DNA of 11,975 nt from assembly GCA_050248615.1 (NCBI GenBank), contig JBFWSA010000049.1, positions 1 through 11,975 of the forward strand, in the 5' to 3' direction. The translations under genes and the position numbers were made by a program. Below the pieces are notes generated by a model. The model worked only from the letters and a program-made list of their open reading frames with translations. It was not told where the DNA came from and searched no databases. The DNA comes from Simkaniaceae bacterium (GTDB lineage Bacteria > Chlamydiota > Chlamydiia > Chlamydiales > Simkaniaceae). Within the stretch, counting starts at the first letter, position 1; each line of letters opens with the position of its first letter. Below, piece by piece: positions 1,840 through 3,161 of the stretch.

Positions 1840-3161
1840 TGGCTATACAATTTTCCACTTTAGTAGATCCAACACAAAAATACGCTTATGTTCAAACGTT
1901 ACTGACCGATCAAGACCAACTAAAAGATGCGGATGTACTGGGTGCTGAACTAAAAAAAATCGATCAAGATTCACTGTTTGCTCTTACCCAATGGATGATT
2001 CAATCGGTCTGTAGCTGGAGAACAGGATCCCACGAAGCCGATGCTTATGCAAACCGATTCGATGAAGCTTTTCAAGAGACGCGCGCGGAACTTCCTCTTA
2101 CTGAAGAGCAACTTCAACAGCTCGATATCTTATGGTATACACGTCATGGAATAAAAGGGACTAATTACGAAAGCTTATCCGAAGAGGTGCGCTTAGGGTT
2201 TGAGGGAAAGCTCAACGCCTTTTTAGGGGATGATACTCAGATTGATGCCATTGACACCATGGAAAAAGCCCGGGGAGTCGCTTTTGAACTCTTTTCAGGC
2301 AAGCGTTGCATTGATTCAAGCCGCTTTATTCCTCATATGAATCACTTTCTTTATGTAGGGGCAGAGGGAGATATTGCATCCATTAAATATGTCATGCATA
2401 GCCTAAGAGAGAGGCAAAAAGAGCATTTTAAGAATAATGGTTTTTTAAGAGAAAGTAGTACCCTTCCGATTCCTACCCATCCCATCGACCCTCTTAAAAA
2501 TAAACAAATAGAAATCGTCATTGCCGGGGGAAAACGTCTCCTCCAAACCTTTCGAGAGCGCACATCGAATGGAAGTCGCTTTTACGGTGAGCAAGCCGGC
2601 ATTCAGGTCAGCATAAAAAAACATGCCACATGGCAACTCGAACTCACCTCCCAAGTAGAAGAAGCGAGACGCTGGGCTCAAGCGCACTGCGATGAAGCCG
2701 TTATGCTTGTTGCAACCGTTAGTGAAAAGTATCTCGTAGAGAGTGCTCATGGAAAAGCAACACTCTATCCAGAAGCCCTCGACAGTCTCCGCATCTATCA
2801 TACAATCCAGGTGCCGTACTGCCCCACAAAACCTCTCGCAACTAAAGATCTTTTCTTGACACTAAAAAGAACGAATGAGTGGCGTAAAATGTATCTGGAC
2901 TTGATCTCCAATCAGCTCCATGGAGAGAACATCAGTAGACTACTAACAACTCAGATCGATGACACTTTCACTCCTCCCGATCTTCCCCCAATCGCCTTAC
3001 GTATTCCTAACCCCCCTCAAGACCCCGAAGTAACGCAGTGGACAACCTATACTAAAGGGGCTGCCGTAATATTTGGGCTCTTTCTGACCTATAAGTACGT
3101 GATTCGCCCGAACTACCCTAAACTTGAGGAGTGGTGGAATAGGCGCCAATCACCTGCATGA
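1839..3161 (+). CDS. Hypothetical protein with Pro-rich linker and C-terminal transmembrane anchor
   Basis: Long ORF. ATG 1839 is preferred over TTG 1824 because GGGAGAGG precedes it at SD distance. The C-terminus has a Pro-rich linker, a hydrophobic helix GAAVIFGLFLTYKYVI and a WWNRR tail. Confidence 0.85.
   Translation: MAIQFSTLVDPTQKYAYVQTLLTDQDQLKDADVLGAELKKIDQDSLFALTQWMIQSVCSWRTGSHEADAYANRFDEAFQETRAELPLTEEQLQQLDILWYTRHGIKGTNYESLSEEVRLGFEGKLNAFLGDDTQIDAIDTMEKARGVAFELFSGKRCIDSSRFIPHMNHFLYVGAEGDIASIKYVMHSLRERQKEHFKNNGFLRESSTLPIPTHPIDPLKNKQIEIVIAGGKRLLQTFRERTSNGSRFYGEQAGIQVSIKKHATWQLELTSQVEEARRWAQAHCDEAVMLVATVSEKYLVESAHGKATLYPEALDSLRIYHTIQVPYCPTKPLATKDLFLTLKRTNEWRKMYLDLISNQLHGENISRLLTTQIDDTFTPPDLPPIALRIPNPPQDPEVTQWTTYTKGAAVIFGLFLTYKYVIRPNYPKLEEWWNRRQSPA

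Follow-up and report, generated by a model that had tools for sequence, protein, structure and literature searches.

Inc proteins, with their bilobed hydrophobic domain of 40-60 residues, are chlamydial proteins with hydrophobic segments, and to our knowledge little is known, outside the Incs, about the means by which environmental chlamydiae get their proteins onto host membranes. Portable effector modules take several forms: four-helix membrane-localisation domains, the PI4P-binding C-termini of Legionella, and the terminal reassortment of effector ends. The membrane segments of type III substrates are described as having a reduced hydrophobicity, which avoids targeting to the inner membrane (PMC6110835), and weakly hydrophobic segments of effectors may reach the ER by Hsp70/EMC routes (PMC12981334). 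In the family Simkaniaceae, the SnOTU protein of S. negevensis, a species described as lacking genetic tools, combines a catalytic domain with a membrane segment predicted downstream of it (PMC10643670), and the Simkania vacuole is reported to contact the ER and mitochondria (PMC12591485, PMC4451638). Among eukaryotic tail anchors, the mitochondrial and peroxisomal ones are characterised by short and less hydrophobic helices, and the peroxisomal ones by a positive C-terminal charge (PMC8287540). The carriers of the prokaryotic LPXTG, PEP-CTERM, and GlyGly-CTERM tags are presented as having signal peptides, together with a motif that precedes the helix (PMC3237569).

Here, we analysed a stretch of 11,975 nt (the window), which is an entire contig (C49, JBFWSA010000049.1) of a Simkaniaceae genome (G000, GCA_050248615.1) of 2.04 Mb in 69 contigs and 96% complete. 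Two of its proteins, A and B, end in a similar tail (Table 1). We describe this conserved tail as a separable module at the C-terminus of proteins from at least three mutually unrelated families of Simkaniaceae, and we hold, with moderate confidence, that it likely anchors type III-secreted effectors in a host-side membrane. The genome encodes the type III export protein SctV/HrcV (TIGR01399, 900 bits for a cut-off of 692). Protein names agree with the family: clusters that include its proteins have members labelled 'Chlamydiia bacterium', and related genomes have proteins labelled Simkania negevensis, Simkaniaceae bacterium, and Ca. Neptunichlamydia. Near-identical DNA is found in metagenomes from landfill, activated sludge, hot springs, freshwater, and mine drainage, and 14 of the 24 rows listed share at least half of the window's words. 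We infer that the host of the bacterium is a protist.

Table 1. Features of the window that concern the two tails and their carriers (positions in the window).
Feature	Positions	Strand	Details
Protein A, family X	1839..3161	+	440 aa from ATG 1839; 445 from TTG 1824
N-terminal all-helical region (predicted) of family X	1839..2471	+	low-confidence model, helices only; alignment
ADP-ribosyltransferase-like fold (predicted)	2472..2840	+	AlphaFold, VIA-align, alignment
Pro-rich linker preceding the tail of A	2973..3038	+	sequence
Tail module A	3039-3146	+	sequence
Tail part 1: short, weakly hydrophobic helix with Y-K-Y end	3039..3104	+	Kyte-Doolittle mean of 1.07 in the best 19-residue window
Tail part 2: basic amphipathic segment, P-x-Y-P-K and W-W	3105..3146	+	hydrophobic moment of 0.50 (11 residues)
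Protein B, last 397 residues of a family Y ankyrin protein of ~1,515 aa	10781..11975	-	third gene of a tandem Y array continuing on contig C23
20-residue extension after the tail of B (V-D-V-x-P-L)	10781..10846	-	common to other Y members; absent from X members
Tail module B	10847-10942	-	short variant, four residues (~one helical turn) below A; length as in the second genus
Acidic/Pro linker of B	10943..11010	-	BLASTN segment B/Y1 ends at 11011
Stretch overlapped by the 3' end of contig C23	11739..11975		236/237 nt identical

The first-pass annotation of this DNA had aligned the two tails by hand and found 14 of 32 positions identical. Coordinates, sequences, and this count were all correct on recheck. 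It had also seen no similarity between the bodies of the two proteins, which is what BLASTP of both ORFs gives: the one good segment is the tail (16/46 identical, pairwise E of 3e-7), and the next has 21 bits and an E of 0.057. The tail pair has a score of 88, for a mean of 22.6 and a maximum of 51 among shuffled sequences (0/20,000 reach 88), and the 84 pairings between a tail of the family and the 21 other tails of tail-anchored type in the genome have a top score of 54. At the level of families, hhalign gives a probability of 0.12% between X (the family of A) and the C-terminal part of Y (the family of B). On these results, the idea that A and B are diverged full-length paralogues is rejected. 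A longer block upstream of the tail, shared by A and a second Y protein (Y1) over a BLAST span of 109 residues, was discarded, because it is at chance level once the tail is removed (1575/5000 shuffles). As for the residues initially listed as identical, the Y-K-Y, P-K, and W-W, and the alanines in part, stand among the seven close members (invariant A, Y-K-Y, P-K, W-W), but the T of T-Y-K-Y does not.

The tail segments match no family in Pfam (four segments, E<=10) or in NCBIfam (six segments, E<=1), one of the outcomes that, for the first-pass annotation, would support a new tag. A resemblance to the membrane segments of Pex14 and Miro was rejected, as Pfam gave no such match. Searches of the open-access literature at listing level found no published description of the tail. 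We regard it as a real and lineage-limited C-terminal module that is apparently undescribed.

The annotation had proposed to build a profile from the two tails and to search the proteome with it. This search returns exactly four tails among the 11,184 six-frame ORFs of the genome, with the next match at an E of 0.098. The two additional members are Y1 (C23:24667-29268, 1,533 aa, E of 3e-16) and a protein of family X on another contig (C38:7260-8477, 405 aa, E of 8e-8). A profile made with the four sequences adds no member (next match at an E of 0.098-0.14 over the searches). Hence, the tails of this genome sit on two families of bodies, X (A and the C38 protein) and Y (Y1 and B), and each family also has a paralogue lacking the tail (C44:1854-2933 for X, C23:21784-24552 for Y). 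The initial view of a modular family was right in that one conserved tail is carried by unrelated cargo, but it does not extend to a large genome-wide family, since this genome has four members, on two paralogous families of bodies.

Outside this genome, the profile of four tails had seven matches at E<=0.001 among 1.84 billion cluster representatives. Six are X or Y proteins, of which three are near-copies or fragments of those of G000 and three are new (P0004, P0006, P0007). The seventh, P0008, is an unrelated acidic protein of 100 aa encoded on a 67-kb contig (E of 1.6e-4). Its helix is central and precedes Y-K-Y..K-P..K-E-W-W. Its identity to most members is 39-55%, and it may represent convergence or a distant use of the motif. 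Because this unrelated protein matches, part of the tail pattern may be a generic helix-end signature. Among 61 genomes, the same profile had four weak tandem matches in one genome of another genus (G027, E of 0.001-0.04), and one further match in a multi-pass transporter. The G027 matches are the C-terminal tails of orphans located just downstream of the rRNA operon, which is the position of C38 in G000, and one of these tails is out of frame with its body. A profile of eight tails was then run against 400 scored genomes of the phylum, where five have matches at E<1e-4. All five are Simkaniaceae: G000, G027 (five tails), G035, G034, and G030, the last with a profile match alone, in a frame of 91 residues. 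A second tail of G035 (E of 6e-4) and one of G407 were read in the fetched loci. Thirteen more genomes match this profile only at E of 0.002-0.05. Eight of these 13 were inspected and turned out to be small unrelated proteins or else segments of N-terminal, internal, or multi-pass type, and a wide distribution of the tail was rejected.

The narrow profile matches in 2/401 genomes, and a pattern scan of metagenomes confirmed 1/245 candidate loci, a near-copy of the window. G001 (90% complete), the sole other genome from the genus of G000, gave no match to the narrow tail (best E of 0.46), although it has X bodies, one of which is cut by the end of a contig. In the converse search, a profile built from nine second-genus tails placed the four tails of G000 on top of its 11,184 ORFs (E of 0.001, 0.001, 0.003, and 0.19; next at 2.2), and hhalign between the G000-type and second-genus tail profiles gives 96%. 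The bodies of the second genus make up a third and unrelated family, Z (0.13% to X, 0.12% to Y), and the body in G407 may be a fourth (3% to Z). The tail family is small and confined to part of Simkaniaceae. Some genes of these arrays are broken between body and tail or inside the body, whether by sequencing error or by real decay, in G027 (L012:1555-2807), in G012 (L056:2343-3697), and probably in G034 (L043:1985-2835).

The tail behaves as a separately evolving part of the proteins. Identity in the tail exceeds that in the body for A and P0007 (74% vs 49%), Y1 and P0006 (77% vs 49%), and Y1 and P0004 (87% vs 42%), and tails of X and Y proteins are 68-81% identical even though their bodies are unrelated. 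The synonymous sites of the A and Y1 tails are saturated (6/20 codons shared vs 8.1 expected), which rules out a recent gene conversion between them and indicates that the sharing is old and kept by selection. Between Y1 and B, 175 of the 229 codons of the body are shared (89.6 expected) and the residues of the tail are 44% identical; DNA identity per 45-nt window drops at the linker near position 11010, from 56-96% to 38-56%. From this pattern, we infer that the linker of B may be a recombination or conversion boundary. In other genera, the orthologues carry different tails. The syntenic X protein of S. negevensis (CCB88257.1) has another hydrophobic segment at its end, the tails of the X protein of G028 and of Neptunichlamydia-type Y proteins are 7-27% identical to the G000 type, and the orthologues with other hydrophobic tails come from S. 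negevensis, G028, G025, and G020. Hence, conservation across the family would concern the putative anchor function and not this particular sequence.

In terms of anatomy, the tails follow linkers rich in Pro, acidic, or Gly/Ser residues. The best 19-residue hydrophobicity means of their helices are 1.07-1.65 in the seven close members and 1.36-1.90 in the second genus, for 2.15 and 2.04 in the two control helices of the same genome, those of a RodZ-like protein and of YajC. The helix ends in Y-K/R-Y/F and is followed by a segment with a net charge of +2 to +5, one or two Trp, and a hydrophobic moment of 0.36-0.71. The short form of the two length variants is the one of B and of the second genus. 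The tail-anchor anatomy proposed at first is consistent with the distance between the end of the helix and the C-terminus, which is 23 residues in A and 36 in B for a limit of ~65-70. X members have a single hydrophobic helix, as tail-anchored proteins do. Y members are not pure tail-anchored proteins, because they have an extra, strongly hydrophobic N-terminal segment that starts near residue 50.

The comparison with the known systems reveals partial similarities. Like Inc proteins, the carriers are chlamydial, are predicted type III substrates, and have hydrophobic segments, but the tail is a single short C-terminal helix, and A has one short hydrophobic window instead of the bilobed domain. 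They share with portable localisation modules the reuse of one targeting part by unrelated cargo via recombination, whereas those modules are folded lipid-binding domains or N-terminal secretion ends and the tail is a C-terminal helix pair of ~35 residues. The likeness to eukaryotic mitochondrial and peroxisomal tail-anchored proteins, as these are outlined in PMC8287540, lies in the one short and weakly hydrophobic C-terminal helix, the positive charge after it, the N-terminal cargo, and apparently the lack of a signal peptide. The differences are that the genes are bacterial, that a module conserved in sequence is common to unrelated bodies, that it includes a conserved amphipathic segment with Tyr and Trp, and that in Y members a further hydrophobic segment lies near the N-terminus. 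Finally, the carriers resemble the type III and type IV effectors with membrane segments, including SnOTU and SnVTD, by their effector-like cargo, their segment of reduced hydrophobicity, and their origin in a bacterium with a type III system (PMC6110835, PMC12981334, PMC10643670), SnOTU being from the same bacterial family (PMC10643670). However, in the sections of these sources that present them, such effectors are described singly or by general properties and not as a family with a shared and exchanged tail.

The cargo associated with this architecture includes ankyrin repeats in Y and a predicted ADP-ribosyltransferase (ART) fold in X. Such effector-like cargo in a chlamydial genome with SctV over the cut-off is compatible with the suggestion of the first-pass annotation that the carriers may be secreted effectors. 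Protein A has zero matches in Pfam or NCBIfam, its N-terminus has no hydrophobic window and no signal peptide evident by eye, and a word-indexed search of 5.8 billion sequences returned only A itself. The fold of the whole protein predicted from the single sequence was uninformative (pLDDT of 41), but the ART-like domain alone, modelled by AlphaFold from 19 sequences, reached a pLDDT of 87 and a pTM of 0.78. When this model was compared with known structures using VIA-align, nearly all of the 50 rows were ART-fold proteins, among which TreTu (Z of 6.5), domain 4-5 of CNFy (Z of 6.5), and the PARP domain of RCD1 (Z of 5.9), the best Z being under the tool's bar of 8. Foldseek with the same model found nothing at E<=0.001, the Atlas gave leads for a homologue (PARP at TM 0.58, DUF3990 at TM 0.64), and PDB sequence searches with family X profiles found nothing meaningful. 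According to the model, this domain of A has an ART fold. In the alignment, A lacks the His- and Glu-type columns that are kept in most distant chlamydial members, and for this reason it is probably not an active transferase; its domain is more likely a pseudo-enzyme or an NAD- or protein-binding domain. The analysis also uncovers an unannotated family of ART-fold domains in 16/300 scored chlamydial genomes (loci L077-L095), whose distant members keep an H-G-G-G ... Y-A ... Y-E-A pattern and, for those scanned, lack a Pfam match.

Protein B (the 10781 protein) had been treated as a whole protein, but its ORF is open at the edge of the window. The end of C23, which overlaps the window, carries the first 1,196 residues of this ORF, so the part seen here is the C-terminal quarter of an ankyrin protein of ~1,515 aa. 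Contigs of two other runs (X5 and X7) extend 2.9 and 3.8 kb past the window edge at B. The array thus comprises three Y genes in tandem: the paralogue without the tail, Y1, and B. Pfam identifies ankyrin repeats in the family, and a PDB search with its profile had only ankyrins among the 60 rows shown. Y proteins also have an invariant Cys with nearby Arg and Cys in a large helical domain (L001:5668-10269, residues ~800-830), a region that, as a guess, could be a catalytic site, e.g., of a ubiquitin ligase.

Considering these elements together, we favour, with the moderate confidence expressed above, a tail that anchors type III effectors in a host-side membrane. The carriers would be secreted via the type III system, the tail would insert post-translationally into a host or vacuole membrane, the body would face the cytosol, and the tail would spread by recombination of 3' ends within the linker. 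The Ser/Thr/Pro share of the first 25 residues, a crude proxy of secretion signals, places the members of the G000 lineage between the 37th and 73rd percentiles of 1,479 ORFs and those of the second genus between the 73rd and 100th. The accessions of the S. negevensis homologues were not found in the five supplements of PMC12591485. A stronger version, in which the tail is a sequence-specific address that mimics the eukaryotic tail-anchor signal and binds one host factor or membrane, and in which Simkaniaceae swap interchangeable tails to re-route effectors, is put forward only tentatively and seems to us doubtful.

The membrane concerned could be the inner membrane of the bacterium itself, with the bodies in the bacterial cytoplasm. 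Bacterial membrane proteins also have basic residues after a C-terminal helix, as exemplified by a RodZ-like protein with a C-terminal helix in the same genome, and the N-termini of the G000 lineage are ordinary in their Ser/Thr/Pro share, the secretion signal being only putative. Nevertheless, we find this improbable, as the architecture carries ankyrin, RING, and deubiquitinase-type cargo, for which we know of no obvious use in the bacterial cytoplasm, the tandem arrays turn over fast, and the helix of the tail is weaker than both bacterial controls. We give the same low credence to a tail that does not span the membrane, whose helix and Trp-rich segment would sit on, or partly in, the cytosolic leaflet of the vacuole membrane or of a lipid droplet, or would bind a host membrane protein. 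The hydrophobic core of only ~12-15 residues, with its mean of 1.07 in A, would suit such a tail, and so would the amphipathic moment, the variants differing by about one helical turn, and a conservation that far exceeds the need of a plain anchor. However, the 19-residue windows of most members are at 1.4-1.9, and the orthologues substitute unrelated hydrophobic C-terminal segments, which fits a general anchoring role.

The unity of the tail family could itself be questioned if the G000-type and second-genus tails were independent in origin, in which case homology would be limited to the sharing between X and Y in the G000 lineage. The identity between the two sets is 13-48%, the unrelated P0008 is matched by the profile, and T-Y-K-Y also follows the helix of a deubiquitinase-like ORF of G000, which nevertheless scores only 4%. 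But reciprocal profile searches put each set first in the other, and both occupy one locus, flanked by the rRNA operon and a class IV aminotransferase gene, so that we deem separate origins quite unlikely. Least credible of all is the other class named by the first-pass annotation, a prokaryotic sorting tag, here a new C-terminal signal cleaved by a dedicated membrane protease of the LPXTG, PEP-CTERM, or GlyGly-CTERM kind. With these tags, as PMC3237569 presents them, the tail shares the status of a C-terminal suffix on unrelated carriers, a helix followed by basic residues, and several copies per genome; in addition, the second genus has a Gly/Ser-rich stretch before the helix, and ordinary rhomboid proteases are found in 5/5 genomes. 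The tail differs from them in that A lacks an N-terminal hydrophobic segment and the one of Y starts near residue 50, the conserved residues are in or after the helix instead of in a motif before it, and sortase, exosortase, and rhombosortase are each over the cut-off in 0/5 genomes. With no Pfam or NCBIfam match, no evident signal peptide, and no sortase over the cut-off, the tail is probably not a sortase tag, and we consider a cleaved sorting signal very improbable compared with the host-side anchor.

The genome has other proteins of this type. A script searching for hydrophobic windows restricted to the C-terminus passed 63 of the 1,796 likely genes, among which 21 orphan-like ones besides A and B were kept by eye, the rest being dropped as housekeeping or doubtful. 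These 21 include two RING proteins over the Pfam cut-off, one weak RING, one weak herpes-tegument-type deubiquitinase, one RodZ-like protein, and 16 proteins without a credible match. The tail is therefore one of several tail types among ~20 other tail-anchored orphans in G000. Eight of the 21 form one paralogous family of ~200-290 aa without Pfam match (L098, L102, L103, L105). The deubiquitinase candidate (L108, G000:C57:2334-3503) is herpes-tegument-like, of the VTD type (Pfam E of 3e-4, below the cut-off), and its C-terminal helix ends in T-Y-K-Y, with a profile match to the tail family of only 4%. Membrane-anchored effectors as such are already known. What the present family would add is a directly testable targeting signal, in the form of a conserved tail on unrelated orphans, a clear case of effector evolution through exchange of C-terminal addresses, and, by its architecture, a means to call a class of effectors missed by Inc-style searches, with ~20 more orphans in G000.

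The interval from the rRNA operon to the class IV aminotransferase gene appears as a hotspot of fast-turnover tail-anchored orphans (L002:5261-8131; L012; L041; L042; L047; L048; L056; L057). One or more such orphans are found there in G000, G027, G035, G030, G407, G025, G020, G010, G012, and G022; several other genomes, e.g., G026, G032, and G024, have none (20 loci fetched, some ending at contig ends). The hotspots of G000, G027, G035, G407, and both Simkania genomes share a RING-like protein that has a helix at its C-terminus. An ORF resembling, by eye, a LAGLIDADG homing endonuclease lies inside the rRNA region (L002:3242-3703, L012:6941-7393), at a position conserved across the family; a 23S intron of the LAGLIDADG kind occurs in Simkania.

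Several other elements were observed in the window. Immediately upstream of the gene of A, on the reverse strand, a remnant of 97 aa (1463-1756) has a zinc-ribbon domain similar to those of TnpB/Cas12f, and the way it is covered in other runs, together with its loose ends there, points to a mobile piece with multiple copies. Two distinct MITE-like elements of ~170 nt with long inverted ends (6262-6431 and 6636-6818) have many copies genome-wide, at 85-99% identity, and the window has a third repeat, which is short (5211-5266), and a fourth (6471-6585). Also on the reverse strand, positions 4591-5379 encode a SET-domain protein, which we take to be of the type of the eukaryote-like histone methyltransferase known as a chlamydial effector.
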